A DNA stretch of 64,000 bases from an uncultured bacterium (GCA_937876125.1 CALEHF010000263.1:3025-67024), one strand, 5' to 3'; positions 39,604 to 63,650 are shown, counted from the first letter of the stretch. A program made the numbers and translations. The notes: generated by a model not told the origin, from the letters alone.

Positions 39604-39831
39604 CAACCTAAAGCTGAGGGCTCTTGCGGGTCAGGTTCGGTGCGGGACGTACGTGGACGCTGCGCGGAGGGGTTACTTCGTGGCTTCATGGAACGTCGGG
39701 GTGAGGGGGCGTTCGGGGGGGCTCGGGAACGGATCCGAGAAAGCAGCGGAGCACGGAAGTGCTGCGGCTGTGGGGAGGTCCGGAGTCTCTGTGACCGTGT
39801 CACCCTTGACTCCACCCTCTGACCCAGGTCA

Positions 39832-40749
39832 CTAGCCCTCGCTCGCATCACAGACGATCAGCGGAACCGTGCCGATCAAGGCGTCGAGCGCATCCGAGAC
39901 AGGCCCCTCGATGGTGGGCAGGATCGGGGCGAGGGCGTCCTCGATGATCGTTGCGAAGATCCCGTTGAGAATTCCGGAGATCAATCCGAGACCGGGACAG
40001 CGGGAGAAGTCGGCGACCGGGTTGGTCACCGCCGGGACGACCGATCCCGGGGTGACCCCGATGATCTCTGACGCCCCCGGCGCGACCGAGATCGTGTCGA
40101 AAGACCCTGTGAGGGACCAGTCGACCGTGATCGCGACATTGCAGCTCACGTTGATCGTGAATGCGGTGATCGTCACGGGGACCACCGGCGCACCGGCGCT
40201 GCCGGTGACCGTGAAGGTGTGAGTCGCGGCGTCGTACGTGACCGCATCCACGGACAGTTCGGCATCCGCCGCAGAGGTCTCGATGGTGACCCCCGATTGC
40301 TCGAACATCTGCGCCGGAATCACGCCGGGGAGCGGCACGGTTCCCGTGATGATCGAAAGACCCGCCGCCACGACCGTCTCGTCCACGCACGTCACCGTGC
40401 CACAGCCGATGAGGTCGAAGGTCGGATCTTCTCCGAGTTCGCCGTACGGCGGCGGGATGGGGTTGGTGCTGTCGAGGAAGAGGAAGATCAACGTGAAGAT
40501 GGTGTCGGCGCAGTCGATCGTCCCGTCATCGTTCGCGTCCGCGGCGTCATCGCAGGGGAGCGGTGCAGATCCGGGCAAGAAGAGGAAATTGAGCGTCGCG
40601 ATCGGGTCCGCGAGGTCCAGGTCACCGTCTTGATTCACGTCCCCGCGAAGAAAGGGTTGGTCGATCAGACCCGCGGTCAGCGCGGGAGTGAATCCGGTGA
40701 GAAGCGTGGCGATGGACAAGATCAGGACACGTCGCATGATCGGCTCCAA
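39832..40749 (-). CDS. Secreted protein with N-terminal double dockerin-like module (family member D); first gene inside tRNA-Arg island
   Basis: Signal peptide MRRVLILSIATLLTG; FLRGDVNQDGDLDLADPIATLNFLF...PCDDAADANDDGTIDCADTIFTLIFLF...PIPPPYGELGEDPTFDLIGC. Confidence 0.6.
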   Translation of the reverse strand: MEPIMRRVLILSIATLLTGFTPALTAGLIDQPFLRGDVNQDGDLDLADPIATLNFLFLPGSAPLPCDDAADANDDGTIDCADTIFTLIFLFLDSTNPIPPPYGELGEDPTFDLIGCGTVTCVDETVVAAGLSIITGTVPLPGVIPAQMFEQSGVTIETSAADAELSVDAVTYDAATHTFTVTGSAGAPVVPVTITAFTINVSCNVAITVDWSLTGSFDTISVAPGASEIIGVTPGSVVPAVTNPVADFSRCPGLGLISGILNGIFATIIEDALAPILPTIEGPVSDALDALIGTVPLIVCDASEG

Positions 40750-41537
40750 TGCTCGGTCGGCGTAGGGAGAACGTTAGTCGCAGACAATAGCGGCGTCGTC
40801 AGGATCAAGGCAGCGACCGCGTCGCTCACTTTGGTTTCGAGTCCGGCAAGTATCGGATCGATCGCGTCGGTTAACCTGACCGCGCCCACCGTCAATTCGG
40901 CGTCCGCCGTCATGATACCGACCGTCACTCCCGATTGCGTAATCGTTTGGGCGAGGACCGCACGGGAAGAAGAAGGGCTGAGACAGTCACAGGGGCCCCC
41001 GAAGGTCTTCGCATGAGGGGCTTTGCGACTTCCCAACGGCACAGTGAGAGCCCGGTGGTTGCGCACGTCTTAAGTCCACCAACGTCCGCAAGATTCCCGG
41101 CAAGCGGTCTCGCAAGCGCGCTCGAGACAAGGGAGGCAGCTTTCCCCCGCGCGGCGCGGATCACCCATTGCGGAAAGAGTCTTGAGATTTTTGGTGTCTC
41201 GCTAGGAGATGGAATCGAGCTGGATGGGTCGGTAAGGTCCTCATTCAGATACGTGAGTCGATCAAGGATGGAAAAGTTCAAACGCGCGCTGATGCCCTCG
41301 CCCTGATTGAGGAGCTTACTCAGAAGGTCCGGACTGATTCTTGTATGACTGAACTCTGGGTCCGGGTTGTCGAGTTCGTGAGCGACTCAGAGCTTCGTCG
41401 CTCACCCTGTTCCGATCTCGCTGAGAGGGTGGTCGGCGCAAGGCCAGTGGTGCCTCGCGAATCTGGGGGAATACGATTCGACATTGAAGTGATGGCGTGG
41501 ACACGAGCATCCAAGTGAAGCGATGACAGGAGGCCAA

Positions 41538-42380
41538 ATGAAGTGGTTCTGGGTGGGTCTCCTGTGGGGACTCCTCGTTCCCGGGAGTGCACGATCTGCT
41601 GAGCTCGACATCTGGACGTTCAACCTACGTTACGCGAGCACGTCGAATCCCAACTCGTGGGAGGCGCGGCGTCCCGTCGTGAAGGCGCTCTTGAGCTTCG
41701 AACAGCCTGACATCATCGGGACTCAGGAGGGACTGTACGCTCAGGTGCGGGACATCGACGCGGACCTTCCCGCGTACGACTGGATCGGGACGGGTCGAGA
41801 AGGGGGAAGCCGCGGAGAATTCATGGCGATCTTCTACCGCGCGGAACGGTTCGAGCCGATCGCGTTCGACCATCGCTGGCTCTCGAACACGCCCCGCGTG
41901 GTCGGCTCCAAGAGTTGGGGCAACTCCGTCGTGCGCATGGTCACGTGGGTCGAGTTTCGAGATCGCCGCGACGGGACGCGCTTCATCGTCGTCAACACCC
42001 ACTTCGACCACGAGAGCGAAATCTCCAGAATGAAGAGTGCGGAATTTCTGGCCCAACTCGTGGGCGAGCTCGACCCGAAGCTGCCGGTGCTCATCACCGG
42101 GGACTTCAACGCTCCCGCGATGACGAGTGCCACATACCAAGCCCTCGTGAACCACGACGTCATCGACACCTGGACCGAAGCCACATCGAAGTCCGAAGTC
42201 TACGCGACCTATCACGGTTACCGGGGCCCGAAGAAGGACGGCGCGCGCATCGACTGGGTGCTCGCTCGCGGCGTCGCTTCCGTCACGAGCGCGAAGATCC
42301 ATACGGACTCGAAGGACGGCCAGTACCCGAGCGACCATTTCCCGGTATCGGCCGCGGTGCGGCTCACCGCACCGCGGTAG
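41538..42380 (+). CDS. Secreted endonuclease/exonuclease/phosphatase (EEP) family protein
   Basis: EEP motifs LDIWTFNLRY..., IIGTQE, VVNTHFDHES, ITGDFNA, SDHFPV; signal peptide; AGGAGG RBS. Confidence 0.8.
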   Translation: MKWFWVGLLWGLLVPGSARSAELDIWTFNLRYASTSNPNSWEARRPVVKALLSFEQPDIIGTQEGLYAQVRDIDADLPAYDWIGTGREGGSRGEFMAIFYRAERFEPIAFDHRWLSNTPRVVGSKSWGNSVVRMVTWVEFRDRRDGTRFIVVNTHFDHESEISRMKSAEFLAQLVGELDPKLPVLITGDFNAPAMTSATYQALVNHDVIDTWTEATSKSEVYATYHGYRGPKKDGARIDWVLARGVASVTSAKIHTDSKDGQYPSDHFPVSAAVRLTAPR

Positions 42381-42840
42381 CCAACAGGAAGCCGATCCGA
42401 ACGAACTCAGCGAGCGGCCAATCCCACCACCCCGGGACCACAGACAGGTGCTGTCACCACTCGCCAGTTCGAAACCTTCGCTGAAATTGCTCCAGCAAGG
42501 CCGATTCTTCCCCGAGGCGTGGAGCCTTCAGTTCTCAGGAGTGATCTGCTCTTTCTCCAAGCCCTCCGCTTCTTCCCGGTGCTTCAGTACTGACCAAGCA
42601 AGATCAGGCCCAAGGCGGCGCCGCTCCGTCTCGATGGCGCCACTCTGAACTCCACTCTGCCCCCCACGCCCCTCCCGCCCTGCCCCCTGCACGTTCGCAA
42701 CGAGACATCGCACACACTCGGCGGCCTCGGCGTAGAAGCCGCGCGACGCCCAGGGCGATCGTCAGCAACCCAAGTCGACCCTGGAAGGAGCCCATCATCG
42801 ATTGCGGAAGCAGCGAACGCTCTGCTAAAGTCCCTCCGCA

Positions 42841-43344
42841 ATGTCCAAGTCACTCGAACTCCATCGAAGACCGCCGCAAGCGCGCCCTCTGTTTTGCCAG
42901 CTGTTCGCACTCTTGCTGATCGGGTCGAACCTCCTCGTCCCGATCCTGCACGGCTTAGCGCACACCCACTCTCCTGAGTTCATCGCGTCCGGCCCCACCG
43001 CACGCGCCTCTCACTCTCACTCTCACTCTCACTCGCACGCTCACGCGCATGTGCGAGACGGGGCATATCACCATTCGCGCTCTCCTTCCCACGCTTGTTC
43101 TGCCGCTACCAGCAGAGCAAAGCTCGCAAGCCGCGACCCAGCAAATGCGCCGGATCACGACCATCGCACCTGCCTGGTCTGCCAAGCGTTGGCGGGATCA
43201 TGGACTTGGGAACGGCCCGCTCCATCGGCGCTGTTGTGCTCCGCGAGCGGAATCACAGCCCCCACTCGCCACTCATCGGTTTCTCTTCACCGACGTCTCG
43301 ATCTCAGCGCGCGAGCGTCGCGCGCCCCACCTCTCTGGGGATAG
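42841..43344 (+). CDS. Small His-rich (HSHSHSHSHAHAH) putative metal-binding protein
   Basis: N-terminal hydrophobic segment then H-x-H repeat encoded by (CACTCT)4 hexanucleotide tandem repeat at 43011-43034; remaining sequence low complexity. Gene call moderate. Confidence 0.4.
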   Translation: MSKSLELHRRPPQARPLFCQLFALLLIGSNLLVPILHGLAHTHSPEFIASGPTARASHSHSHSHSHAHAHVRDGAYHHSRSPSHACSAATSRAKLASRDPANAPDHDHRTCLVCQALAGSWTWERPAPSALLCSASGITAPTRHSSVSLHRRLDLSARASRAPPLWG

Positions 43345-43494
43345 CGCCTCGCCGCAGTTTCTGCGGCCAGAAGCACATCGTGGCATTCTGAATAGGCCTT
43401 CCTTCGAAGGCCGGTCGATCCCCCACCATCGCCTTCGCTGCGCCCTTTCGATCGGAAGGTCGATCCGCAGCGCCGTGCGCCCAGAGGAGAAAAC

Positions 43495-44925
43495 ATGAAC
43501 AGCTCCCTCAGCCCCTGCGGCGAGTTCTCTGCCCGAATTCGTTGCCTGCTCACCGTCGCGGTCTTGACGCTCCCGTCCCTCTCTGCGATTGCCCAAGATC
43601 ACGATCACTCGAGTGAGAGCCCAGCCGATGCCCCGCAAGTGCTCGCTGGGCCACTGCTCGATTCGTCACAGCTCGATACGTCACTGGTCGATCAATCCAG
43701 GGGTCTCGAACTGGACCAGGACCACTCCCACGAAGCGCAGAGCGATGACCTCGCTTCGCACGAAGCGGGACCGGTCACCTTGCGGCTCACCGACCTCTCG
43801 CTCAATCTGCTTCTCGCCCTGGGCACCTCGACCGAGCGCGATGCCTCTCTCGAGTCTCTCCAAGGAGGGGGCCACGATCCGCGCAAGCGCGGGATCACGC
43901 TGCAGAATCTCGAGTTCTCCATCGCCGGTGCTGTCGACCCGTACTTCTCGGCCGAGACGCACCTCATCTTCTTCGTCGACCCGATCGAGGGAGAATCGAT
44001 CTTCGAAGTCGAGGAGGCCTTTCTCACGACGCAGCAGCTCCCTTTCCATCTCGAAGAACACGGACTCGAGCTCGAACTCGGGCAGATGTTCACGGAGTTC
44101 GGATTGCTGAACCCCCGCCACCCCCACACTTGGGATTGGCTGGACCAGCCGATCATCAACTCGCGGCTCTTCGGACCCGATGGGATGCGGAGCCCGGGGG
44201 TGCGCCTCGAATGGCAAACGCCACTTTCTTGGTACTCGGCGGTTCACGTCGGCATGCAGAACGCCAACGGCGAATCTATGGCGAGCTTTCTCGCCTCCGA
44301 TGAGTTCTTTGGAGAGCGGCCGATCGGCGGGGTGGGGTTCGAGGATCGAGAAGTGCGGTCGCTGCGCGACTTCGTCTACCTCACGCGGTGGCAGAACGCT
44401 GGGTCACTTTCTCCCGAGGTCTCGGGAAAGATTGGAATCTCCGGCCTCATCGGTCCCAATGCGAGTGGGGCAGATGGCCAAACGATCGTCGCCGGAGGAG
44501 ATCTCCTGATCGAGTGGCGCCCCCAACGTGAGGACTCTGCCCCCTTGGTCACCTGGCAGACCGAAGTCATGCAGCGGGACTATGAGGTCGATGACCAAGC
44601 CGCGCTCTTGCCGGGGGAAGATCTCGGGGACTGGGGGATGTACTCGCAGCTCCTCTGGAGTTTCCACCCCAATTGGGCTGCGGGTCTCCGCTATGAGTTT
44701 GTGTCGGGGAGCGGCAGCAGTGTCGGGGGGCGTGACGCCGATCCATTCCGCGACGATCGTCAGCGCATCGCACCGCTGATCGCGTGGGAAGCGAGCCACT
44801 TCTCGCGCGTGCGATTCCAGTACAACTACGACCAGGCCGAACACCTCGAGGACTCCGCCCACTCATTCTGGATCGGGTTCGAGGTGATGTTGGGGACGCA
44901 CCGGCAGCATGAGACAAGGAGGTAA
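43495..44925 (+). CDS. Outer-membrane beta-barrel protein with His/Asp-rich N-terminal region (CopB/PcoB-like metal-resistance porin candidate)
   Basis: Signal peptide (AVLTLPSLSAIAQD). N-terminal DHDHSSES...DQDHSHEAQSDD His-rich region. C-terminal ~330 aa with alternating amphipathic strands ending RVRFQYNYDQ; GAGGAG RBS. Confidence 0.45.
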   Translation: MNSSLSPCGEFSARIRCLLTVAVLTLPSLSAIAQDHDHSSESPADAPQVLAGPLLDSSQLDTSLVDQSRGLELDQDHSHEAQSDDLASHEAGPVTLRLTDLSLNLLLALGTSTERDASLESLQGGGHDPRKRGITLQNLEFSIAGAVDPYFSAETHLIFFVDPIEGESIFEVEEAFLTTQQLPFHLEEHGLELELGQMFTEFGLLNPRHPHTWDWLDQPIINSRLFGPDGMRSPGVRLEWQTPLSWYSAVHVGMQNANGESMASFLASDEFFGERPIGGVGFEDREVRSLRDFVYLTRWQNAGSLSPEVSGKIGISGLIGPNASGADGQTIVAGGDLLIEWRPQREDSAPLVTWQTEVMQRDYEVDDQAALLPGEDLGDWGMYSQLLWSFHPNWAAGLRYEFVSGSGSSVGGRDADPFRDDRQRIAPLIAWEASHFSRVRFQYNYDQAEHLEDSAHSFWIGFEVMLGTHRQHETRR

Positions 44926-45306
44926 CGCGCGCGCGGAGACTGGTCGCCGGAAGGAGGAAGTTCAGCGATCTCGACGTCGAGCCAAGACCGAGTCGATCGC
45001 GTGGACCACATTCTCGAGTTTGGGTGGATTGAGCGCGTCAGGATGCGACGAAGCGCACCGGCGTGAGTCATTGTCGAGGTACTGACCGGAAGCGGCAGCG
45101 AAGCATGGTGACGGATGCACAGGTAGCTGGACTCGGCTGGGGCGGACATCGCCTCCCCCTTCGCGCAATTGTGACGACTGCGGCCGCGCGCCGGGGGGCG
45201 AATTGAAAATCTTGGTTGGCGTCATGCGATCCACCGCCTACCCTCGCAACACTGATCGGGGTGCCGACGAAGCACTCCGGACCCTCCATCCAAGAGAGGA
45301 CATCGG

Positions 45307-46128
45307 GTGCCACGCATGAAGTTGCTGATTTGTTTTGCTGCCATACTTCACCTCACTCTTCCCTTGATCGGTCAGACCGGTGGTCAGTTTCAGGACTGGA
45401 AACGTGACGCTGCGAAGGCAGAGACTTCAGAGGATCGAATCGGGGCCCTCAACCGTATTGCGTGCGCGTCAGCTGAGGAGGCCAAAGCCTCCGAGATCGT
45501 GCGAGCGATCGCGGCCTCGCTGAAGGACGTCAATACCGGCGTTCGCGTACATGCCGCTTGATTACTCGGACAGTGCGAGGACCAGAACGATGCGCTGAGG
45601 AAACTAAAGTCGGCCCTCACCAGTGGCCGCAGTTCATTCCTCAAGGCACAGAAGGTCTTGAGAGTGACGGAGGACCAACGCTTTGCCACGATTCTCCGCT
45701 GGTGGGACATCAAGAACGACCCAAAGTCGGAGAGCGCGGCGGAGTCGGGGTCGTACCTCGCGGTTCTCGCGGCTGAACTCGCTCTCCTTGAAGACTACCT
45801 GGCCGCGCAGCGCAGACGAGACCGCGGACGAGAGTTCTGTCTCGCGATTTGCGAGAGCCTCTCGAAGCTGGAACAGGAGGCGGCTGCCGCCGAGGCCGCG
45901 GTCCTCAAGTTCTATGAAAAAGTCGCCGCGAAGTCGGTCGATCAGTGTGCCCCGTTCGCGCCGATTCTGCTCTCCTTCGGAACGCGACCCTGCTGGGCTG
46001 CGGTCGCAGAGTGCATCGAGGAGAACGATGCGCTTCTTCGCACCTGGAAAACGCGCCGCGAGCTCATAGACTCGTACGAGGCCAGGCGCGCCGAGGGCTC
46101 GCCGACAAAGCCTTCTCCATTCGAGTGA
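45307..46128 (+). pseudogene. Secreted HEAT-repeat protein interrupted by in-frame TGA at 45559-45561
   Basis: ORFs 45307..45561 and 45658..46128 share one frame; only stop between them is TGA at the variable position of a HEAT repeat (VRVHAA-*-LLGQ). No SECIS-like hairpin. Confidence 0.4.
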
Positions 46129-47206
46129 CCTTGTGGTCAAGAAGTAGACAAGCTTCGGAATCGGAGACACTCACCATCTTGGCAACAGTGCGGTGAGTGC
46201 GTCGGAGCAAGTGGCCGGTCTCTGAGGGCAGCGACTTCTCGCGCCACGTGGCGGTGGCGATCACCTTCTTCCCGTCATTCGACCGCGACGGGAATAAGTA
46301 GGGGTTGGGTCCGAAGAGAGCCTCTCCGACTCGAAGTGCTTCCTCGACGATCTCGATCATGGTGTCAGACAACGGCAGGTCGAAGCTACGGCCGCTCTTC
46401 ATGCGAGGTATCCGGATCGCGCGATTCTCCAGGTCGACTCAGTCTCGCCTCAGGCTCACCAGAGTCCCCGGGCGTAAACCTGAGAACAGCCCAAGCTGGT
46501 GCATGCAGCGACGAATCGGATTGTTCAACGCGACAACCTTTGCCAACCAACCGGGGAGATCCTCGGGCAAGATCACCTTGTCGGAGATTCTCTCCTTGTG
46601 ACGCGTCACGGCTGCCGTCGGGTTGGCGGGCAGGGAATCCGGGTCGTCTACCACTCGGAGTGCGAAGTCGTAGGCACTCCGCAATGCCGCCATAGACCGA
46701 TTCGCGGGGTACTTCCCGTGGTCCTTGGTGAGCTGCTCGTGGCGTGCTCGGCATGTGCTCCGTTTCAGCTCGGTGATCGGGAGCTCCGCCCAGTCCGCGA
46801 GGTACTTCGTGAGCATGTAGCGGAATCCGTCGATCGACCGGGGCGACAACTATCGCTTCGTAATGTCCGCTTCGTACTCGTCCCAGAGCCGAGCGACCGT
46901 CCAGGCCTCGGCGTGCTGAGAAGGGGCGTTGGGATCGATCCCACGCTTGATGTCAGCAAGCAGGGTCATGGCTTGTGACCGAGCGTCGTCGAGGATGATC
47001 TCCCCGACCCGGCCGAGCGTTCTCCGCACAGTCCGAACGAGCCTTCGTCGAGGCCGCTCCCCGGTGTAGAGATCAGCCTGGATCTTGAAGGACTTGGACT
47101 TCTGATTCACTTGGACGAAAAAGCCAGGGAGGGCGGAGTCGCGAAGCTGGTACGGCTTCCCGTTGAACTTGGCGTCTCGTATCTTGGCGTCGGTGAGTCG
47201 TGGCAT
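46064..47206 (-). pseudogene. Degenerate P4-type tyrosine integrase (three same-frame fragments separated by TAG and TGA, C-terminus lacking catalytic Tyr)
   Basis: N-terminal Arm-binding domain LTDAKIRDAKFNGKPYQLRDSALPGFFVQV. Core-binding fragment, then catalytic fragment with HLLRRTHRTVA / LLLDHK box II-like motifs. In-frame stops at 46850-46852 (TAG) and 46439-46441 (TGA). Confidence 0.7.
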
Positions 47207-47359
47207 GGCAGCTTCCTCTCGCGAACCGTGTGCGTGGGAAGCCCGAACCGTGTGCGAACCGTGGCACTAGCCGGTTGGCGAAGGTTCCTGTAGAAGTATT
47301 CGATACTAAGTGCTTATAGGCAAGGGACCTGACGGTCTGGGACGCGTAAGCCCTTGCGA

Positions 47360-47404
47360 TTCCTAAGCGGCAGGTCACAGGTTCGAATCCTGTACGGGGT
47401 ACTT
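47360..47404 (+). repeat. attR-like 45-bp direct repeat of tRNA-Arg 3' end
   Basis: Exact copy of 39559-39603 with no upstream D-arm/acceptor, so a fragment rather than a tRNA gene. Together with the integrase remnant at 46064-47206 it defines a ~7.8-kb integrated element (39604-47359). Confidence 0.8.
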
Positions 47405-47605
47405 TCACAGCTTGGCGGCCCAGCTCACAACCGTCCGTTCCACAAAGCAACGGGCTGGAGGTGCTCCCCCATCCACTCTGGAAGGTGATGTCCGGCGAAG
47501 AGCCAGTGCCCGACGGGAAGAGCACGCATTGCTCTCCGTTCATGTACCTTTGCCGCGCTCGCTCGTGGCTCGCGAGGAATGACTTTTCGCCTTGGATCGT
47601 AGCGA

Positions 47606-47674
47606 GCAGCCGCTCGAGGGGGTGCCTCGCGGATCGTGCGGAAGACCTTTGTGGATTAGGGGCTTGAGGGGGGT
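47606..47674 (+). repeat. 65-bp direct repeat R1 (partner at 51631-51697), contains GTCTGTGACCG core motif
   Basis: First 26 nt ggatcgtgcggaagacctttgtggat identical in both copies, remainder ~80% identical. Confidence 0.75.
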
Positions 47675-47740
47675 CTGTGACCGTCCCTTGGTCCCATGAC
47701 CGCGAGGCTCTCCGGAGAAAGTCTACTGTCCCGCCCTTCC

Positions 47741-49374: not shown

Positions 49375-49845
49375 CTACCCCCACCTCAACGCGAGAGCGA
49401 AGAGAGCCGCGGCCGCGAGTGGCGCGGCGGTCCTCACGTGATTCCAACGAGTCCATCGAGCGAGATAATGAGTCCAAAACTCGGCAGCGTCCTCCTCATG
49501 CGCTTCAACAGCTGCCAATCGGTTGTTCAGCGGCACGTTGAAGGCGATGGTCACGAGCAGACAGCCGATCAGGTAGAGGCCACTCCCCACGAGCGTCAGG
49601 ATGAGCGGAACACCGATGGCCTGACCGAGAGCGACGATGACCAAGGCGATACACACGACCCCCGTTCCGAAGAAAGCCCCGAGGAACCAAGGGTTCAGGA
49701 CCGTGATGTTGATCGCTTGCATGGCACGCACTCCCGATTTTTCTGGGAGTTGACCGAGAGCGCGCAACACGAAGGTGGAGGACGCAAAGAAGATCCCGGC
49801 GACCAAACCGGAGCCGAGCAGGGCAACGAAGGTCAAAATTTTGCC
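49375..49845 (-). CDS. DUF1772-like small membrane protein
   Basis: Four hydrophobic helices, pattern similar to anthrone oxygenase-like/DUF1772 proteins; ORF-track 5' end overlaps transposase stop, true start likely internal. Confidence 0.4.
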   Translation of the reverse strand, partial: GKILTFVALLGSGLVAGIFFASSTFVLRALGQLPEKSGVRAMQAINITVLNPWFLGAFFGTGVVCIALVIVALGQAIGVPLILTLVGSGLYLIGCLLVTIAFNVPLNNRLAAVEAHEEDAAEFWTHYLARWTRWNHVRTAAPLAAAALFALALRWG

Positions 49846-49850
49846 TCTCC

Positions 49851-51083
49851 TCACACATCTGTGGGTCCCGGCAGAGGCGGATCCAGCTCGATTCCACCAC
49901 GACACAGGTACATGAGCGCGATCAGCGGCTGCGGGCCGTGGAAGCCGAACGCGCGTCGCGCGATCATCCGAAGACGCGTGTTCATCTCTTCGACGATCCC
50001 GTTCGTGAGTCTCTCGTCCACGTACGCCAACACTCCGTCAAGGTGCTTCCGAATCGTTCGCGCTGTCTTCACGAACGGTTTTAGTTTCGACCGTGACGCC
50101 CAAGCTAACCAATCCCTCAATGCTCGCTCTGCCCGCCATCTTTGTTTGTACTCGAGCGCCTTTGCCAGCGTCTCTTTCAACAAGTATGCACGGAAGAGCG
50201 GCGCGTTCGACTTCTCAATCTCCCGCAGCTTCTTCTTCTCTCCGTCGTTGAGGCTCCATGGGTTCTTCAGCACGACGAAACGGCTGCGGAACAGGTCCTT
50301 GCCCTCGGGCGTGCCACGCAACTCTCGAAGCTCCTCACGTCGCACCGCATCGAAGGCGTCACTGGCCAGTCGTTGCACGTGAAAGCGGTCGAAGACCACC
50401 TGGGCATTGGGAAGATGCTCGCGAATCGCTTTGTGATAACCGGCGGACATATCGATCTTCGCCGCTTCGATCTCAGCACATCGCCTCGGTCCGAGTTCCT
50501 CGAAGAAGGAGGCGAGCGTTGTCGCTCTCGCACCAGGCCCAGCCCAGACGATGCGTCGACGGTCGTGATCCACGACAACGGTCAAGTACTTGTGTCGTCG
50601 ACGGTAACTGAACTCGTCGACTCCGATTCGTTTCAGGCCGTTGAGGCGCTCTGGATCGAGTCGATAGCCGACGACCCGATCCACGATCCGGCCCACTGTC
50701 GCCCAGGAGATCCCCATCAACTTTTGAACGGAAGTCTTGTCGGTTGACTGGGCGAGGTAAGCAGTGAGCCCCTCGAAATCGTGAGTGAAGCCGCTGTTGT
50801 GTGCAGCCCAAGGAACCGACTCCACGCGAACTCCACAGGTCGGGCAGCTCACGCGACGAGGGGCGTAGACGAGCCAGACTCGCGGGCGCCCGAGGCCGAG
50901 GTGGCGCCAACGTCGAGAGGAGACCGAGTCGAAGCCCGGCGCGGGAGCCCGACAAACGCCGCAACGAGGCAACTTGGCCCTCGGTCGCACGAAGACCAAG
51001 AGGTCCCCAGAGGAGAAGTCGAATCCCTGAACAAAGAGAGTAGTGATGCCGAGAAGTCGACGAAGTAGAGTCTTGGTGCGCAC
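49851..51083 (-). CDS. ISL3-family transposase
   Basis: N-terminal zinc-finger/HTH region (RCGVCRAPAP...CPTCGVRVESVPWA) and DDE_Tnp_ISL3 core (VDEFSYRRRHKYLTVVVDHDRRRIVW..., KIDMSAGYHKAIREHLPNAQVVFDRFHV). Confidence 0.8.
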   Translation of the reverse strand: MRTKTLLRRLLGITTLFVQGFDFSSGDLLVFVRPRAKLPRCGVCRAPAPGFDSVSSRRWRHLGLGRPRVWLVYAPRRVSCPTCGVRVESVPWAAHNSGFTHDFEGLTAYLAQSTDKTSVQKLMGISWATVGRIVDRVVGYRLDPERLNGLKRIGVDEFSYRRRHKYLTVVVDHDRRRIVWAGPGARATTLASFFEELGPRRCAEIEAAKIDMSAGYHKAIREHLPNAQVVFDRFHVQRLASDAFDAVRREELRELRGTPEGKDLFRSRFVVLKNPWSLNDGEKKKLREIEKSNAPLFRAYLLKETLAKALEYKQRWRAERALRDWLAWASRSKLKPFVKTARTIRKHLDGVLAYVDERLTNGIVEEMNTRLRMIARRAFGFHGPQPLIALMYLCRGGIELDPPLPGPTDV

Positions 51084-51306
51084 GGGACCTCCGCGATCTT
51101 GTGGTTGTGGTTAACAACAAGAAAGCACGGTCTCGTGCCGTTTTCACATCTCTCTCCATCACAAATTCCTGGTGTCCCCCGGAGCTCCGTCGCCCTCGGC
51201 GTCGGTCGCGCCCTGCCCTCGCGAAGCGAGCTTGGGCCGATGCCGAGGGCGGCGGTGCGGAGGGGCCCGGCAGCTCCCGAGCTCGAGGTTGAGTGGGCGA
51301 GGTTTC

Positions 51307-51564
51307 TCACCTACGATCTACCCACTGAGGTGTGAGGAGAGGCCGGTTATTCTCGTTCGATTCGCAACTTGTATCGCGGGTTGGGTCGAAACCGCAATCG
51401 AGCGGCGCGGGGGGCTCTGATCCCATCTGGAACAAGGAGTTCAGCAGGTTGATCGGATCCGCGAGGTCGACGTTGCCATCGTCGTTGGAATCGGATCCGC
51501 TCTGACAGGTGCTCTGGGGATCATTGAAGAGAATGATCCCGAGGAGTGTCAGAGGATCACCCAC
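51307..51564 (-). pseudogene. Truncated dockerin-like module remnant (family member E)
   Basis: Only a single repeat plus terminal Cys motif (SDSNDDGNVDLADPINLLNSLF...PPAPLDCGFDPTRDTSC); upstream body absent; lies between ISL3 and repeat R2. Confidence 0.45.
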
Positions 51565-51630
51565 ATCGACCCCGCCGTCGAGATTGGTATCACCGCGGCG
51601 GAACTGAATCTGTTCGAAGGGGGGCGGCGT

Positions 51631-51697
51631 GGATCGTGCGGAAGACCTTTGTGGATGAGGGCTTGTGGGGTGTCTGTGACCGCCTGTTGGTCAAGCC
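51631..51697 (+). repeat. 65-bp direct repeat R2 (partner of 47606-47674)
   Basis: See R1. Confidence 0.75.
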
Positions 51698-51810
51698 ATC
51701 AAACGACAATCCGAAGATCATCAGGCAACGCACTCCTGTATCGTGTCGATACGAGAAATGTACGTGCCCCAAGAAGAGCGCTGGCCCGATGGATCAGAGG
51801 AGTCGAACGC

Positions 51811-52716: not shown

Positions 52717-52765
52717 TCCGATCGAAGGAGGGCTGGCAGTGATCCGAGGGGGCGTCACGAGCGCG

Positions 52766-53278: not shown

Positions 53279-53288
53279 GGTCCATCTT

Positions 53289-54094: not shown

Positions 54095-54571
54095 ATGTAC
54101 CCAGAGCACTACGGAACTCACGAGTTCTTTCCCCGCTCCAGTGACTTTGAAGTCGTCCGCCTCGACGACTTTCAGGGACTGGGGGTCCGGTCGCTCAGGC
54201 AGTTCCGCCCGGGTGACCTTGTGGCTGAGTTCACCGGCGAGCTCGTCCTCGAACGCACGCAGCACAGCCTGCAAGTCGACTCGAACCTTCACCTCGAAGA
54301 CCTCTACTTCGTGGGGTACTTCCTCCACTCGTGCGCGCCCAACGTCACCGTCGATATGACGCGAAGGCTTGTTCACGCTGCGGATTGGATCGAGCCGGAA
54401 CAGTTCCTCCGCATGGACTACGCTGAGACAGAGGACATGCTCTACAAGCAGTTTCCCTGTCGTTGCGGCGCCCCGCAGTGCCGCCGGTGGATCACTGGAC
54501 GTCGAGAAGCACCGAACATGTCTCAACCCATCCTGAGCGAAACGTCTGCGCACCAGGACCAAGTCGCGTGA
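54095..54571 (+). CDS. SET-domain protein (putative protein-lysine methyltransferase)
   Basis: SET signatures GxG (GLGVRSL), LHSCAPN (NHSCxPN), post-SET Cys cluster CRCGAPQC; stop overlaps next start (GTGA). Confidence 0.7.
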   Translation: MYPEHYGTHEFFPRSSDFEVVRLDDFQGLGVRSLRQFRPGDLVAEFTGELVLERTQHSLQVDSNLHLEDLYFVGYFLHSCAPNVTVDMTRRLVHAADWIEPEQFLRMDYAETEDMLYKQFPCRCGAPQCRRWITGRREAPNMSQPILSETSAHQDQVA

Positions 54572-55788
54572 CCGTGTTGAACGCTGCTCAATGGTGGGCG
54601 AGGGAGGACCTTCGCATCGATGGCGATCGGCTGGTCTTCGCGGGCCGTCCCGTAGCTGATCTCGTGCGACAGTTCGGGAGTCCGACCTTCTTCTACTCCG
54701 CAAAGCGCGTTCTCTCCAACGCCGAGCGCCTGCACTCGTGCTTTCGAGACGCCGGCCTAGAGGGACGCTCCCGCATCCACTACGCGATGAAGGCGAATCG
54801 ATTTGCCCCGTTGTTGACCTTCCTCAAAGGGACCGGTCTGGTCGGAATCGATGCGTGTTCCCCCAACGAGGTGGAGCACGCCATCGCCTGCGGTTTTCGT
54901 GCGGAAGAGATTTCCTTCACCAATACCAGCCTCTCACCGAGGGATTTGCGACGCCTGGCGGGAATTGATGGCCTGCGCATCAACCTGGATTCCATTGGGG
55001 CGATTCGAAGTTGGGGGACGCTCGCGCCCGGCTCTCGCATTGGAATCCGCGTCAATCCGGGGCTTGGGATCGGCCGCACTTCGAACGACAAACTCAGCTA
55101 CAGCGGCGATCAAACCACTAAGTTCGGAATCTACCGCGAGCAGTTCGATGACGCTCTCGAGATGGCGGACCGTCACAACCTCACCGTCGACACGATTCAC
55201 TTTCATTGCGGCTGCGGATATCTGACGCCGCAGCTGGAAGCACTCGACCGCATTCTCGAAGAGGCCAACTGGTTCGTGCGCCGCTGCCCGACCACCCGTT
55301 CGGTCAATCTCGGAGGCGGACTCGGGGTACCCCACCAGGCGACGGACGAACCGCTCGACTTGCACCGCTGGGCTTCGCTCCTCGTCCAGCACTTCGGTTC
55401 CACCGAATTGGCGCTGGAAATCGAGCCGGGGGACTACCTGGTCAAGGACGCGGGAATCTTGGCCCTGAGTGTTTGCGGGAACGAGGTGAAACGCAGAACG
55501 CGCTTCGTTTCCGTGGATGCCGGATTCAATGTGGCGATCGAGCCCGCGATGTACGGTCTCCCCTTCGAACCGGTCCCAGCCCTTTGGCGTCGGGGTCCGC
55601 TCGAGTTGGTGACGGTGGTCGGCAACATCAACGAGGCGCTCGATGTCTGGGCCACAGACGTGCCGCTGCCATCACTCGAGGAGGGGGACTGCCTCGCACT
55701 GATCAATGCCGGAGCGTACTCGAGCTCGATGGCCTCGAACCATTGCATGCGGGGGGATTGGAAGGAGTTCCTGCTCTTCGATGAGTAG
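54568..55788 (+). CDS. PLP-dependent Orn/DAP/Arg decarboxylase-family enzyme (LysA/NspC-like)
   Basis: TIM-barrel PLP region IHYAMKANRFAPLLTFL (Lys-PLP), C-terminal beta-domain with GEPGDYL-like EPGDYLV motif; translationally coupled to SET gene. Confidence 0.7.
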   Translation: MTVLNAAQWWAREDLRIDGDRLVFAGRPVADLVRQFGSPTFFYSAKRVLSNAERLHSCFRDAGLEGRSRIHYAMKANRFAPLLTFLKGTGLVGIDACSPNEVEHAIACGFRAEEISFTNTSLSPRDLRRLAGIDGLRINLDSIGAIRSWGTLAPGSRIGIRVNPGLGIGRTSNDKLSYSGDQTTKFGIYREQFDDALEMADRHNLTVDTIHFHCGCGYLTPQLEALDRILEEANWFVRRCPTTRSVNLGGGLGVPHQATDEPLDLHRWASLLVQHFGSTELALEIEPGDYLVKDAGILALSVCGNEVKRRTRFVSVDAGFNVAIEPAMYGLPFEPVPALWRRGPLELVTVVGNINEALDVWATDVPLPSLEEGDCLALINAGAYSSSMASNHCMRGDWKEFLLFDE

Positions 55789-55795
55789 GAGCGAC

Positions 55796-56388
55796 TCAAC
55801 GACGCTCGCCGCGCTCCTTTTCCGCGAGCGTGCTGCGCAGCAAGGGGAGCACCGCGAGGTCCTTCGGCGATCCCAGGAGTTCCTTGACTCGATTCAAGCT
55901 CGGTAGGTCCTGCGCACACAGCTCCCGTTCATCCAGGAGCATTCGGTCGCAGGTGGCGAGAAGGTCGGGGTAGCTCTGGCCGCTCGCGAGCTTCCCCAGA
56001 ACGTCGAGCGGACCACACTCCGTGCTCAGCAGGTGGTGCCTTTCCCCGGCAAGATCCTCTGCGCTGGGGCGTCGGCTGAGTTCCGGGCGGATCCGATAGA
56101 GCGCATCGATCTCGACCAGGACGCGACACAACCGCTCGATGTTCCCAGCTTCCCGAGCGTGAACCACGTCCAGGTCGACGGTCGTGATCGGCGCACCCTC
56201 AAGCAGGGCGCCACCCCTCCGACAACAACGAAGTCCACCTCGCTGTCGGCCAACGTGCGCAATAGCTTTCGGAAATCAGCGTGCACGATCCCCGCTCCTC
56301 GGGGTGAAGCCTGGACTTCTCGGGCATCAGCGACAGCGCATCCTGAAGGACCTGAAGTCGCTGCCCCGGCTCGAGGCTGAGCATCCAC
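55796..56388 (-). pseudogene. MNT-type nucleotidyltransferase (AbiEii/KNTase-like) disrupted by -1 frameshift in a G-run
   Basis: Frame 1 gives ...EVDFVVVGG then diverges. An extra G in the GGGG run at ~56214-56217 would restore GGGGALLEGAPITTVDLDVV (GGxAL...R.T.DLD NTase motif) continuing into ORF 55796..56167. Confidence 0.4.
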
Positions 56389-56887
56389 CGGATGGGGCTG
56401 CGGTCGACGCCGTTCGAATCGTAGACGACATCGGTCGAGACCGGTCCGGCGAGGGCGGGAGTTTCTTGTGGGGGCACAGTGTGTTGTGGGGGCACAGGTG
56501 GGTTCTTCATGGCTGCAGTTTTCCGCCCCCGGCTGAACCCGACCAGACGCGGGCGCTCGGGGATGCCTCGAATTGGAATCGCTGAGCCGGCGACGACCGA
56601 CCGATATTCAACCTCCAGGGGCTCCGTCGACCACTCCGAAGTCACCGATCGGTTAGGACCACAACCAGCGAACTGACGTATCCCGATCGTCTCGGACCGC
56701 TTCGATCTAGTGAACAACCCCTCCGCTGCCGCCGCTGCCAAGCATCGGGCGTTTCCAGAGTCTCCCACAGATTTTCCAAGATTCCTCTGCAGGGTCGGTC
56801 CCGCGATCTCGCGGTAGTGGCTGAAGGGGAGTTCGCGCAGTGGGTGCGAGCCCCGAAACCCCGACTGACCTTTGGAAAGGCAGTTCC

Positions 56888-59497
56888 ATGACCAGCACTC
56901 GTCGCACCGCTCTTGTTCTCATTCTTTGCGTCCTCTTCAGCCAAGCCACGATCACCTCGTTCGCCCAATGCGGTGGTTCAGTGGATTTCCCATCGGCGCC
57001 GCTCCCGCTCGATCCGGGCGTCACCGCACACACCGAAGTCGCGGGGAACGCGCTCGTCCTCGAGTCGCCCCTCCTCGTCTGTCACCCGACCGCGTCCCCG
57101 ATCGCGGGAGTGAACCAGATCAGCGTCGACGGGGCGGATCAAACGGTTGTCTTCTCGTCCCCGACCCTGGCAATTCCGGGAGACGCTCCCGCGATCGATG
57201 TGATTCGCGGCGATCAGGTCTTTACCCGGGCGCTGAGCGGGGCCTTCCTGCACGCCGCCGGCGGGCTCTGCACTTCGGCCGCCGGCTACTCGGTCGGCAT
57301 TACCGATGCGGCGATCGCCGTCGTGGTCGGAGATCGGTTCGAGGAACACCCCCTCCCCCCCGGGGAACTCCCTTTGAGTGCTGCGGCGATCGGAGTCTGC
57401 CCGCAGAACGGTTCGTTCATCTTCATCTGCGTCGAGACGACGCTCCCGAGCCTCGAGTTCGTCCTCGGTTCTGAACACGAATCGGTACCGCTCTCCTCGG
57501 CGGGCGCTGCAATTCCCGACAGCTACTCGAACGGTGCGACCGGCGGCGTGCTCTACTACTCCGCGACCGAGGTCCTCTCGATCACGGCGGGAGACGCGAG
57601 CACGACTGCGCTGCCCGGCACGTACGTTTCCCACGCACCGAGCCCTGGTGGAGTGCTCGTCACGACCACCGCGGGTCCCGTTCTGATCCCGCTCCCCACC
57701 GGCTCGATCGTGCTCCCGTTCGCTCCCTGCGACGTGCCGCTCGACTCTTCGGGGCCGGACGCGACCGGCTCGGCGATCGCTATCAACACCGACGCGTGCC
57801 CCGGCGTCGACGGTTCGACCGCGACCTGGCCCGCCCTGACGGCGGTCTGCGGTGGCGGACCCTCCTTCGGATTCTGCGCCTATCCGACGATCTCGGGTCT
57901 GCGGGCGAAGGTCGCGAGTGTGCATGCGTACGCTTCGACCACCCTCGGAGGATCGATGGCTCAGAACATCACCGGTAACATTTGGACTCCGATCGGGCTC
58001 GGCCCGGGGGCTCCGGGAACGGGGAAGACGATCGTCGCGAACGCGATGGTCGGAAATCTCAACGGCGACTTCGCGTGGGCATGGGCGTTCGCTCGTGCGG
58101 CCCTCGCTTCCGCAATTCCCGTCCCGTGCATCCGCATCACTCAGGGTGTTGCCGGCGGCCACGGACTCATCCATAACGAAGGTCACCAGGCGAGCTGGGC
58201 CGCGAGGGTGAAGGATCCGCTGCGCTTCGAGGGGTGGAACGACGCCGACGATCTCAACTTGGTGATCGAACTCTCCGAAGAGATCTTCCTCCCGATCGAC
58301 CCGACCACGCACATCTTCTCCGAGACCGAATACAAGTTCGACATGGGGAGCACATTGCCCGGTCTCCCGGAGCTCTGGCAAGGAACGATCACGGCGGATC
58401 ACAATGGCGTCGATCCCCAGCTGACCGTCGAGTTCTCGAGCAATCCAGCCCTCGGTCTCGACGACAACACAATCGCCCTACTGATCGAAGCCGCGTTCTT
58501 CTACGATGTGGTCCGCGCCGGTTATGCGCTCTCGAGTGCGCTCACGATCCTCACGACGGCGATCGACGTCCCGGCGGGCGTGACCGCGGTCGACATCAAG
58601 TGCGACAGCTCGATCGCGGGCAACCACTTCGAGTCGAGCTACAACGGTCCTCCGATCACCTCGATCTGCGGCGACGGCATCGTCGAAGAAACGGAAGAGT
58701 GCGATCAGACGGGCCAACTCAGCTGCAACCCGAACTGCCAGCTGACCCCCGACAACACGATCTTGATCCTCGACGTCCCCGCGCAGCCCGGTTTCCACCA
58801 GCTGCCGGTGTTCCTCAGCAACCCGGTGCCGAGCTCTCAGTTCTCCCTCGCCATTTGCGCCCCGGGGAACGACTTCGTCGGCCTCTCCTTCCAGGGCACG
58901 ATTACAGAGCTCGTGAACCCCGAACTCGTCCTTCAACAGTTCTTCCCCGGGCAAGGGATGACCCTGCAAGTGGTCTGCGACGCGCTGCCGCCCTACAACG
59001 CTCAAATGCTGCCGCCCGGTCCGTTCGAGCCGATCGTGATCCTCGACGTCTTCGTCAACAATCCGTTCAGCTTCCAGTTCTGCGACGACGCGCTCGGACA
59101 GCAAGGTCAGCCGACCGTGCAGAACTCAGTCATGAACTTCGGTGACCAACTCGTGCTCCAAGATGGCTTCGGATTGATCACCGACGTGCACGTGGTCGGC
59201 GGACCCCAGGTGCAATTCGTGCGGGGCGACGCGAACGCCGACGGCCAGCTCGATATCAGCGATCCGATCTCGACCCTGCTCTTCCTCTTCCCGCCGACCC
59301 CGTTCGGAGCGTTCTTGCCGTGCATGAATGCGGCAGACGTGAACGTCGATGGTCTGATCGATATCGGAGATCCGATCGGCCTCCTCGGACACCTTTTCGA
59401 TCCGCTGGCGCCGCCGATGCCACAACCGTTCCCGCTCTGCGCGCCCGATCCGTTCTTGTCCGGTCTCGAGTGCCAAGTCCAGGCGCTCTGCCCGTAG
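56888..59497 (+). CDS. Large secreted protein with Myxococcus-type Cys-rich repeat and C-terminal double dockerin-like module (family member F)
   Basis: Signal peptide MTSTRRTALVLILCVLFSQATITSFAQ. CGDGIVEETEECDQTGQLSCNPNCQ repeat. C-term FVRGDANADGQLDISDPISTLLFLF...PCMNAADVNVDGLIDIGDPIGLLGHLF...PPMPQPFPLCAPDPFLSGLEC. Confidence 0.65.
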   Translation: MTSTRRTALVLILCVLFSQATITSFAQCGGSVDFPSAPLPLDPGVTAHTEVAGNALVLESPLLVCHPTASPIAGVNQISVDGADQTVVFSSPTLAIPGDAPAIDVIRGDQVFTRALSGAFLHAAGGLCTSAAGYSVGITDAAIAVVVGDRFEEHPLPPGELPLSAAAIGVCPQNGSFIFICVETTLPSLEFVLGSEHESVPLSSAGAAIPDSYSNGATGGVLYYSATEVLSITAGDASTTALPGTYVSHAPSPGGVLVTTTAGPVLIPLPTGSIVLPFAPCDVPLDSSGPDATGSAIAINTDACPGVDGSTATWPALTAVCGGGPSFGFCAYPTISGLRAKVASVHAYASTTLGGSMAQNITGNIWTPIGLGPGAPGTGKTIVANAMVGNLNGDFAWAWAFARAALASAIPVPCIRITQGVAGGHGLIHNEGHQASWAARVKDPLRFEGWNDADDLNLVIELSEEIFLPIDPTTHIFSETEYKFDMGSTLPGLPELWQGTITADHNGVDPQLTVEFSSNPALGLDDNTIALLIEAAFFYDVVRAGYALSSALTILTTAIDVPAGVTAVDIKCDSSIAGNHFESSYNGPPITSICGDGIVEETEECDQTGQLSCNPNCQLTPDNTILILDVPAQPGFHQLPVFLSNPVPSSQFSLAICAPGNDFVGLSFQGTITELVNPELVLQQFFPGQGMTLQVVCDALPPYNAQMLPPGPFEPIVILDVFVNNPFSFQFCDDALGQQGQPTVQNSVMNFGDQLVLQDGFGLITDVHVVGGPQVQFVRGDANADGQLDISDPISTLLFLFPPTPFGAFLPCMNAADVNVDGLIDIGDPIGLLGHLFDPLAPPMPQPFPLCAPDPFLSGLECQVQALCP

Positions 59498-59549
59498 TCG
59501 TCTGGCGAGAAGATCGACTCCGGCACTCTGATTTGACATCCGAATAAAG

Positions 59550-59584
59550 CGGCCGGGGCGTGAGAGCGTCCCGGCCGTTTTTTT
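59550..59584 (+). terminator. Rho-independent terminator after family member F
   Basis: ggccgggg-cgtgagagcgt-cccggcc hairpin followed by T7. Confidence 0.6.
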
Positions 59585-59778
59585 GAGTCAAGATGCTCCG
59601 TTTGCTAGCGACCGTCCTCCAAAGACCTGAAGAGGCGCGCGCCCCGGGAGAAAATCCGGCTGACCTTCAACGACTTGGATTTGCGGAGTCTTTGTGACCG
59701 TCTTCCCGTGACCTTCTTCCCCCAGATTCCCGGCCCGAACTCTTGAACTTGTCCAGAATCAGATCTACTCTGCGACCC

Positions 59779-60228
59779 ATGGACAAAGACCCCGCAAACC
59801 TCCTCAGAGAACACGGTCTCCAAGTGACGGCCCAGCGCCTGGCCGTGCTGCGGGCGGTCTCGGGCCGACCCCACTGCACAGCCGATGAGGTCGCCGAGGA
59901 CGTGCGCGCCGAGATCGGCGCCATCTCTCGCCAAGCGGTGTACGACGCGCTCCGGGTGCTCGCGGAAAAGCAGCTCATCGGGCGCGTCCAGCCCGCCGGG
60001 TCCCCCGCCCTCTTCGACCCCAGGGTCGGGGACAACCACCATCACGTCATCTGCCGCACCTGTGGGAAGGTCGTCGATGTCGACTGCGCCGTCGGCGAAA
60101 CCCCCTGCTTGACCGCCGCCGATCACTCCGGCTACCAGATCGATGAGGCGCAGGTGATCTATTGGGGCCATTGCCCCGAGTGTCTCTCGGAAAAGTCAGA
60201 GTCGGAGCCTTCGAGAACAGGAGCCTGA
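59779..60228 (+). CDS. Fur-family transcriptional regulator (FurA/PerR-like, upstream of katG)
   Basis: Fur fold: HTH ([19 protein letters not shown]), metal sites [12 protein letters not shown]...CPEC; furA-katG arrangement. Confidence 0.8.
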
Positions 60229-62490
<2,262 letters not shown>

Positions 62491-62550
62491 TCGCGCGGAG
62501 TGATCTCTTGAACTCAGGGATCCGCCATGGGGCGGGCCCTTGAAAGCGCA

Positions 62551-62583
62551 GCGGGCCCGCGTCCCTCATGGACGCGGGCCCGC
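62551..62583. terminator. Inverted-repeat terminator between convergent katG and downstream gene
   Basis: 14-15-bp perfect inverted repeat gcgggcccgcgtcc/ggacgcgggcccgc with short loop, followed by TGTTTGTT. Confidence 0.5.
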
Positions 62584-62619
62584 TGTTTGTTCTCTCGGGT
62601 TCACCGCGTCGACTCGCTG

Positions 62620-63468
62620 TCAGGAGTCTCCACCGAGCATGTGCTCGTGCCCAGCCGCGAGCAGTCCGCGCCACCAACCGAGAAGGAAGGTCGCTGGATC
62701 GGGAGTCTCGAGCAGATCGTGGTAGTGCAGTAACGCGCCAGAAAAGCCCGTCGTGTTCCACGACGTCCCCTCGGGCACCGGCAGTTCTGGCAGTGCATCT
62801 GGCAGCGGGTAGGCCGTCACGTAGAAGTAAGGGTTGGGGATCGCGTCGTCCCCCAGGGTGAATCCGAAATTCATTTGCTTGTCGGCGTTCTCTCCATCGG
62901 CCGGATCCTGACCTGGAATCCGCTCTCCCGGTAGCCATACCATCGAGAGATCGAAGTGATGGGGCCAGACTTGGATCGGGCTGGTCTCTTCCCGAATGCC
63001 AGATCGGAACTCGACCATCGAGGCGTTCACAGCACCGAACGACTCGCCGATCTGCTGCGCCGCTTCGGCAGAATAGCCGGGGTGCTCGGGTGCAGGCGCT
63101 TCACCGCCTCCTCGAGCCGCATTCCCACCCGACTCGATTCCCAGCGCGGTCAGAAACTCGCGGACAGACTCGCGGATCGACTGCGCAGACTGTCCACGCA
63201 ACGGCTCTGACGACCGCGCATCCGTCGCCGCCCGCATCTCGAGCAGACTGTTCCGGAGATCGAGTTCGAGCTCGAAATCGACTGCGGCGCTGACGACCCC
63301 TGTCGTGAGACCGTTCAGCGACGGGCGCAGGCTCGCGTGCCACCAATGCTTGCGTTGCGTCCGGCACTCCTTCAGAAGGTCGCCGAGCACGCGCGCGTAG
63401 TCATGGAGCGCGGCGCGGGTGGTATCGATGTGCGCGGGGTCCAGAGTCGAGAATCGGTTTGTGCTCAT
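62620..63468 (-). CDS. Hypothetical protein, unknown function
   Basis: Long ORF with ordinary composition, no recognisable motif. Confidence 0.4.
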   Translation of the reverse strand: MSTNRFSTLDPAHIDTTRAALHDYARVLGDLLKECRTQRKHWWHASLRPSLNGLTTGVVSAAVDFELELDLRNSLLEMRAATDARSSEPLRGQSAQSIRESVREFLTALGIESGGNAARGGGEAPAPEHPGYSAEAAQQIGESFGAVNASMVEFRSGIREETSPIQVWPHHFDLSMVWLPGERIPGQDPADGENADKQMNFGFTLGDDAIPNPYFYVTAYPLPDALPELPVPEGTSWNTTGFSGALLHYHDLLETPDPATFLLGWWRGLLAAGHEHMLGGDS

Positions 63469-63650
63469 GTTGTTCTCATTCTGACCGTCGTGAAGCACTT
63501 CTCATCATCCCGGACGCCCTCCAGCCACATGAGCACTCGCCGGCAGACTCCGCCGAGCGCTCGGACTCAGTTTCGCCGCGGGAGTTGCAAGCCAAGCCGC
63601 AACACGTAACTCTTGCCGTGGGGCGAGCTTCGGGTGTCCCTGTGACCGTG

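Follow-up and report, generated by a model that had tools for sequence, protein, structure and literature searches.

The last 24 kb of a 64,000-nt stretch of DNA from an uncultured bacterium (GCA_937876125.1, CALEHF010000263.1:3025-67024; the whole stretch is hereafter the window) contain a recurring intergenic motif, GTCTnTGTGACCG, which is very likely the conserved end of a family of dispersed extragenic repeats cognate to a transposase-like enzyme encoded elsewhere in the organism. The enzyme resembles the REP-associated tyrosine transposases (RAYTs; REP, repetitive extragenic palindrome), which are HUH/Y1 enzymes of the IS200/IS605 superfamily (IS, insertion sequence). Six copies of the repeat lie in the window, the same sequence stands in inverted orientation on the two sides of a RAYT-like gene on another contig, homologues of that gene show this layout with the same or a slightly diverged repeat, and a decayed copy of such a gene adjoins one of the window copies. 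The repeats thus belong to a class already known, selfish or domesticated, in the layout termed 'REPtron' or 'TIRtron'. A sequence-only reading of the same DNA had offered three candidates for the motif, namely a family of regulator operators, a small element like a REP or a miniature inverted-repeat transposable element, and a structured RNA. The second of these is supported by the gene flanks and the decayed copy, and since the motif is a repeat that flanks a RAYT-like gene, it would be neither a regulatory site nor an RNA. This removes a false lead, in that the motif resembles a regulatory site shared by the neighbourhoods of fur/katG, rimK and surface-protein genes and yet is repeat DNA.

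A family of extragenic repeats

Five copies lie on the plus strand, within 0-4 nt of where the sequence-only reading had placed them. Copies B (47614..47693, core 47668-47685, GGGGGGTCTGTGACCGTC) and C (51614..51692, core 51667-51684, GGGGTGTCTGTGACCGCC) are of the full-length long form; the other three are A (39740..39800, core 39782-39799, GGAGTCTCTGTGACCGTG), D (59654..59703, core 59685-59702, GGAGTCTTTGTGACCGTC) and E (63590..63651, core 63633-63650, GGTGTCCCTGTGACCGTG). The earlier statement that every copy is on the plus strand holds for these five but not for a sixth, F (40979..41034, core 40982-40999, GCGAAGACCTTCGGGGGCCCCTGTGACTGTC), an inverted and shorter variant on the minus strand found with a hidden Markov model (HMM) of the family. 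All six lie between called genes in non-coding DNA, as had been claimed for the five.

A 13-mer of the motif, GTCTNTGTGACCG, occurs exactly only in A (39785) and D (59688), against 0.01 occurrences expected and none in 100 shuffles, and with one or two mismatches, each time on the plus strand, in B (47671), C (51670) and E (63636). At up to two mismatches the window holds 13 matches against 6.9 expected, which is barely over chance, and the 13-mer by itself is therefore weak evidence. An invariant 8-mer, TGTGACCG, occurs six times on the plus strand of the window and never on the minus strand; in the literature it was met only in primers. The five plus-strand sites also have GGnGksyyTGTGACCG in common, together with a looser upstream block of ~45 nt. 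In leave-one-out nhmmer searches every omitted copy was the top non-training hit (E 2e-9 to 0.018), and F surfaced in them as a weaker minus-strand match.

The family comprises a short form of ~20-25 nt (the core being ~18-25 nt) and a longer one of ~50-70 nt (consensus GGTCTGCTCGCGCTGnGTGCGGAAGACCTTTGTCGACTAGGCTTTGnnGAGCCCCTGTGACCGTCC), and can be represented by the 16-mer GGAGTCTCTGTGACCG. The motif forms its conserved outer end, ...GGAGTCTCTGTGACCGTC, and similarity among the copies stops abruptly right after TGTGACCGT(C), which fits an element terminus. The repeat ends in ...TGTGACCGTC, CGTG or CGCC, and the GTAG tag is absent: CGTC is terminal in B, D and most copies on the transposase contig described below, in place of which A and E show CGTG, C shows CGCC and F shows TGTC. 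The 65-bp direct repeat that had been reported for B and C is real, although self-comparison of the window extends it to ~80 nt, with 47614-47693 and 51614-51692 being 85% identical. Its two copies do lie at the two sides of a 4-kb segment, but rather than bracketing that segment they are simply two full-length copies of a dispersed element.

The distribution of the copies is suggestive only. Five of the six are on the plus strand (two-sided P = 0.22), and their confinement to the last 24 kb has a P of ~0.003, computed post hoc. Scanning a genome collection, which was without the source genome, with CGGAAGN{21,24}GGNGKSYYTGTGACCG gave merely 16 single chance matches in unrelated taxa, and a scan of viral contigs for the motif gave 12 single matches, none with extended similarity.

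The repeat around a RAYT-like gene

A metagenome pattern scan with CTTSNGGNGKSYYTGTGACCGY returned 74 loci, of which two stood out when scored with the family HMM: copy C of the window itself and a contig of 5,208 nt, L106 (ERZ891418 NODE_2675, coverage 4.26), which has four strong family matches and shows no similarity to the window by blastn. At 117-410 of this contig at least seven reverse-orientation heads, GGACGGTCACAGG (the motif in reverse complement), are arranged head-to-tail upstream of an open reading frame at 542-1807 that encodes a protein of 421 aa, P0121. Three of the heads continue as far as the complete tail ...CAAAGCCTAGTCGACAAAGGTCTTCCGCA, as B and C do in the window, and one forward copy of GGAGTCTCTGTGACCGTC lies downstream of the reading frame at 2017-2034. 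With an HMM built solely from the three long copies of this contig, the best matches in the window are B, D and C (E 9e-8, 3e-7 and 1.6e-6), and F, A and E are also among the first seven.

Sample ERZ23486493 holds a counterpart contig (L134), and both RAYT contigs begin within the repeat cluster. Many lake metagenome assemblies, both ERZ891418 and ERZ23486493 among them, contain contigs that match the window at 99.9-100% identity. In ERZ891418 the transposase contig has a coverage of 4.26 against 4.76-5.40 for the window contigs, and its GC content of 62.8% compares with 58.5-67.4% in 2-kb stretches of the window and ~63% overall. From co-occurrence, coverage and the shared repeats we infer that it comes from the genome of the window organism. 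This organism is probably a planctomycete, as judged by its gene content, which includes DUF6288, dockerin-like secreted proteins and a Fur closest to a protein of Aeoliella sp.

P0121 is RAYT-like in its sequence motifs and in its predicted fold. It matches NCBIfam NF047646, 'REP-associated tyrosine transposase', with E 2e-9 over profile positions 5-143 of 146. It has 44 homologues, the named ones carrying Planctomycetota, 'transposase' or 'RayT', and one of them is annotated by JGI as 'REP element-mobilizing transposase RayT'. An alignment of 28 homologues shows N129-H130-x-H132 (HUH) and Y190...N194-P195 to be invariant. A search of the PDB at the sequence level gave nothing below E 0.3. 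With the AlphaFold2 model (mean pLDDT 82.6), Foldseek against the PDB placed first 4er8_A, an E. coli RAYT with a REP hairpin (E 1.3e-6, target TM 0.68), followed by the TnpA structures of IS608, ISDra2 and IS200 (2vjv and 2xm3 among them, E ~1e-5). The model has an extra, largely helical C-terminal region of ~150 aa (residues ~280-421), and the clade of P0121 is a divergent one within the RAYT-associated kind, distinguished by this extension.

The layout recurs in diverged form among the homologues. A gene for a protein 60% identical to P0121 (on contig L138) has two reversed heads upstream, and GAGTCTCTGTGGCCGT and an exact GGAGTCTCTGTGACCGT downstream. Another, at 55% (L135), has a variant, GGAGTCACTGTGGC, reversed once upstream and forward 2-3 times downstream, where 0.21 matches would be expected. 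At 43% identity (L136) flanking repeats are not obvious. A paralogue from the window's own samples, P0133 (L139-L144; NODE_549, coverage 4.97), is 46% identical to P0121 and has different inverted repeats on its two sides, 25 nt long and reading GACyGCAACAGTGACGCTyCAAGCT. Across these loci, repeat and protein thus diverge in step. The window has a 17/19 match to the P0133 repeat at 20522-20540, inside a gene, where 0.01 are expected.

The window itself retains a trace of such a gene. A remnant on the minus strand at 47505..47618, LERLLATIQGEKSFLASHERARQRYMNGEQCVLFPSGT, adjoins copy B and is 59% identical to residues 367-403 of P0121 (tblastn E 1e-6, BLASTP E 3e-12), and it was the only match when a six-frame translation of the window was searched with the family profile (hmmsearch, E 4e-9). 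Copy B is oriented relative to the remnant as the upstream repeats are relative to the intact gene, and most of a second RAYT-like gene therefore appears to have been deleted at the repeat. This brings the RAYT genes to one intact gene in one context, one decayed remnant and one 46% paralogue with different repeats.

The gene trace at B also bears on a related but improbable explanation, according to which the copies are solo ends of decayed autonomous insertions of the IS200/IS605 kind, each marking a former whole element, and were not spread by themselves as miniature repeats by a single-copy RAYT. In its favour, besides that trace, two or more P0121-like genes have existed in the organism in addition to the paralogue, and the repeats end sharply on their outer side, in the manner of terminal inverted repeats. 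However, the single profile match in the six-frame window leaves every copy but B without a gene trace nearby, the seven or more head-to-tail heads upstream of the intact gene are typical of a REP cluster and not of an IS end, and the intact gene has been seen in one genomic context only.

If the repeats are instead the dispersed targets of a RAYT-like enzyme, a mechanism can be proposed by analogy with the RAYT/REP and IS200/IS605 systems (PMC2817692, PMC3116915, PMC3479197, PMC5581495). The enzyme would recognise the end of the repeat in single-stranded DNA and cut one strand there, and this activity would have spread the repeats to new intergenic sites, where the copies would persist as mostly passive DNA. 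They could also act as substrates for rearrangement, which may account for the truncated gene at C, the deletion of most of the RAYT gene at B and the breaking of assemblies at repeat clusters.

Several points weigh against this explanation. P0121 scores 37.5 bits against NF047646, for which the curated cut-off is 80, and its match to Pfam Y1_Tnp is marginal (E 0.19). The contig that carries its gene was assigned to the same genome by co-occurrence, coverage and shared repeats, without physical linkage. Fourteen copies at two loci are known in ~80 kb of the organism, and the six in the window are all in its last 24 kb. The repeat lacks the GTAG tag and is not arranged in inverted doublets, and hence is not a textbook REP or REPIN. 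Nor does the repeat unit form a significant hairpin, DNA and RNA folds compared with shuffles giving z-scores of -1.7 to +1.1. The only palindromes are local and not conserved (GTGAC-CGT-GTCAC in A, GGTC-TGT-GACC in B and CTGTGACCGTCACAG at position 2025 of the transposase contig), and the inverted partners attributed to the motif by the sequence-only reading are not shared among the copies. Finally, no recent mobility was seen, every assembly of this population being collinear with the others across the region at 99.9-100% identity; the same collinearity means that strain-level presence or absence of the segments between motifs was not found.

Gene neighbourhood and the tRNA-Arg island

Copy A lies between a tRNA-Arg gene and the stop codon of a minus-strand dockerin-like gene, and F between divergent genes. 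The left side of B directly adjoins the RAYT remnant, and the copy is 53 nt past the stop of a minus-strand APC transporter gene. Copy C adjoins a 5'-truncated fragment of a dockerin-like gene that is without its signal-peptide end, and is 124 nt upstream of rimK. D is found between the end of an 869-aa gene and fur, upstream of a conserved fur promoter-like box, and E between the stop of a minus-strand 89-aa gene and the start of a DUF5996 gene. Taken in the orientation of the element, A, B and E are followed downstream by the end of a gene, C, D and F by the start of one, and the upstream neighbours are equally mixed.

This arrangement had suggested a link to stress and redox genes, which turns out to be incidental. 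An operator of, for example, a local Fur/PerR-like or MarR-like protein that co-regulates stress and surface genes would place copies upstream of genes in the same orientation, as C, D and F are (rimK, fur and a dockerin-like gene), and would be in keeping with the invariant half-site-like GTGAC and with the palindrome in A. This explanation is nevertheless very unlikely. The motif is missing upstream of fur-katG in three relatives (L011, L012 from Aeoliella sp., and L013) whose Fur is 81-84% identical, and what they have in common with the window is a different box next to the fur start codon (CTCTTGAACTTGTCCAGAATCAG at 59740-59762), which is probably the real fur/katG promoter-operator. Three copies stand just past gene ends, the copies take every orientation relative to genes, the partner half-sites vary in spacing and orientation, and the same sequence forms a sevenfold tandem cluster and inverted flanks at a transposase-like gene. 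Promoters with sigma-70, sigma-54 or extracytoplasmic function (ECF)-type spacing did not fit across the five aligned copies, as compared by eye.

The sequence-only reading had further placed motif copies at both junctions of a genomic island. An island of 7.8 kb is indeed inserted in the tRNA-Arg(CCT) gene (gene at 39527-39601, island at 39527-47404), but it is in fact bordered by a 48-nt stretch of the tRNA 3' end in direct repetition, attL at 39556..39603 and attR at 47357..47404, both on the plus strand and identical at 47 of 48 positions. Copy A is 178 nt inside the island and B 263 nt outside, and the motif copies are therefore not its junctions; nor do the borders belong to the repeat family. 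A degraded and fragmented integrase, with only an Arm-DNA-bind_3 domain, lies at the far end of the island (46439-47206, minus strand). Between the start of the integrase and attR stand three direct repeats, GAACCGTG(TGCG), at 47223-47234, 47245-47256 and 47256-47263, which resemble arm-type integrase binding sites and may be such; they and the motif core both contain ACCGTG, probably by coincidence.

The integrase fragment, the mosaic gene content of the region and the succession of the five direct copies to the right of the tRNA gene at spacings of 7.9, 4.0, 8.0 and 3.9 kb might call to mind attachment (att) scars, left by islands or cassettes that a tyrosine integrase inserted in tandem beside tRNA-Arg. 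Such an origin has very little to recommend it, since the only demonstrable island uses the tRNA 3' end at a distance from the motif, self-comparison of the window found no further tRNA fragments near C, D or E, and the repeat is also present at an unrelated locus, where it flanks a Y1 transposase-like gene.

That the motif belongs to a structured non-coding RNA, a terminator-like element or an mRNA-stabilising one is just as remote: three copies do lie 0-53 nt past the stop codons of minus-strand genes, and REPs elsewhere can work as RNA elements (PMC3733652), but Rfam gave no match at gathering or E-value thresholds, RNAalifold consensus structures reached only -4.4 and -1.0 kcal/mol on the two strands with broken pairs, the z-scores of single-sequence folds span the range given above, and any RNA function would still be secondary, a REP-like repeat having been co-opted for it. 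A coding reading was also rejected: the copies have no open frame in common, and within the repeat B is offset from C by a 1-nt indel. The variable positions of the repeat follow a 3-nt period (TVTxTPQA on the minus strand, GV[SFP]VTV on the plus strand), and the reading frame of the dockerin-like gene on the transposase contig continues through the repeat (...VTVTETPED).

Secreted-protein genes of this dockerin-like kind (DxDxDG repeat) are found near RAYT-like genes or repeats at several places (L106 1995-2363, L136 8994-9815, and 39832-40749 and 51344-51613 in the window), which may just reflect the commonness of the gene family. The 4-kb stretch between B and C contains the APC transporter gene, an Anthrone_oxy gene, an ISL3 element of 1.5 kb and the dockerin-like fragment. 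The ISL3-family IS, at 49843-51343 between the Anthrone_oxy gene and the truncated dockerin-like gene, has 24-nt imperfect inverted repeats and occupies a single locus in every assembly of the population. Contigs from three independent assemblies start at 54738, inside an ornithine decarboxylase-like gene, and contigs from two samples start at 59711, 8 nt past the end of D; these starts may mark boundaries that vary among strains, or breaks that repeats caused in the assembly.

Other repeated sequences in the window include near-perfect palindromes of 35-37 nt at 62549-62585, 20200-20236, 13869-13905 and 14834-14868, one of which, resembling a terminator, stands where the ends of katG and the DUF5996 gene converge. 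An imperfect inverted repeat of 170 nt lies just upstream of the tRNA gene (39173-39340). Internal DNA similarity of 71-83% links the 3' parts of two secreted-protein genes (38894-38965 and 59220-59399) and two adjacent small genes (32246-32383 and 32468-32605), and these pairs are, from their sequences, apparently paralogous domains or a tandem duplication.

Comparison with known repeat-transposase systems

An uncultured freshwater lineage of planctomycete-like affinity thus carries a divergent RAYT-like enzyme with cognate repeats, a paralogue with repeats of its own, and a decayed copy. Such repeats break metagenome assemblies and mark sites of rearrangement, one copy being beside a truncated gene and another beside a largely deleted transposase gene, and they could serve for strain typing.

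The system resembles the REP/RAYT pairs known as 'REPtrons', such as E. coli TnpA_REP (4er8) and the Pseudomonas REPINs (PMC2817692, PMC3116915, PMC5581495), in having short extragenic repeats that stand inverted on both sides of a probable HUH/Y1 gene and cluster next to it, an enzyme whose predicted fold comes closest to the E. coli RAYT, and co-divergence of repeat and protein. It differs in the missing GTAG, in the lack of a convincing hairpin and in the existence of a 50-70-nt long form, while P0121 has its additional C-terminal region and scores below the curated RAYT cut-off. Unlike REPINs, the copies stand singly in the window, where no pair is inverted except A and F, 1.2 kb from each other, and the cluster at the transposase gene is head-to-tail.

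A second group of relatives is formed by the TIRtrons or TIRYTs, described in PMC3733652 as RAYT-like genes flanked by longer inverted repeats without GTAG, some of which belong to moderately abundant dispersed families; in the planctomycete R. baltica, many genes for tyrosine transposases are reported there to have flanking repeats that match. The likeness to this description lies in the largely non-palindromic inverted flanks without GTAG (L106, L138, L135 and L139) and in the recurrence of the repeats elsewhere, both singly and in clusters. The GGGGWSAS motif of some terminal inverted repeats (TIRs) is not evident here. The same source describes REPs tagged by a terminal CGTC, with a stem of 8-9 bp and a loop of 4-5 nt, and reports them to be without a dedicated transposase; here most copies end in CGTC, but the 8-9 bp stem is absent.

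Insertion sequences of the IS200/IS605 family (IS608, ISDra2) share with the present system, in all probability, the enzyme superfamily, and also short specific ends and, given the gene remnant in the window, decay of gene copies. Their ends, however, are subterminal hairpins of which the left is unlike the right, whereas here inverted copies of one sequence are found; they are usually multi-copy whole units, and a tnpB-like gene is missing from the system described here.

If the enzyme does recognise an end that is not a hairpin, this would broaden the view of how Y1 transposases choose their DNA. A bolder proposal, which we regard as possible though rather unlikely, is that the repeats and the enzyme make up a distinct RAYT branch restricted to Planctomycetota, with an extra helical C-terminal domain and a single-ended, non-hairpin repeat ending in ...TGTGACCGTC, recognised in a manner unlike the hairpin plus GTAG of 4er8. 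Were this so, the branch would supply CGTC-ended repeats with the dedicated transposase that PMC3733652 reports to be lacking for CGTC repeats.

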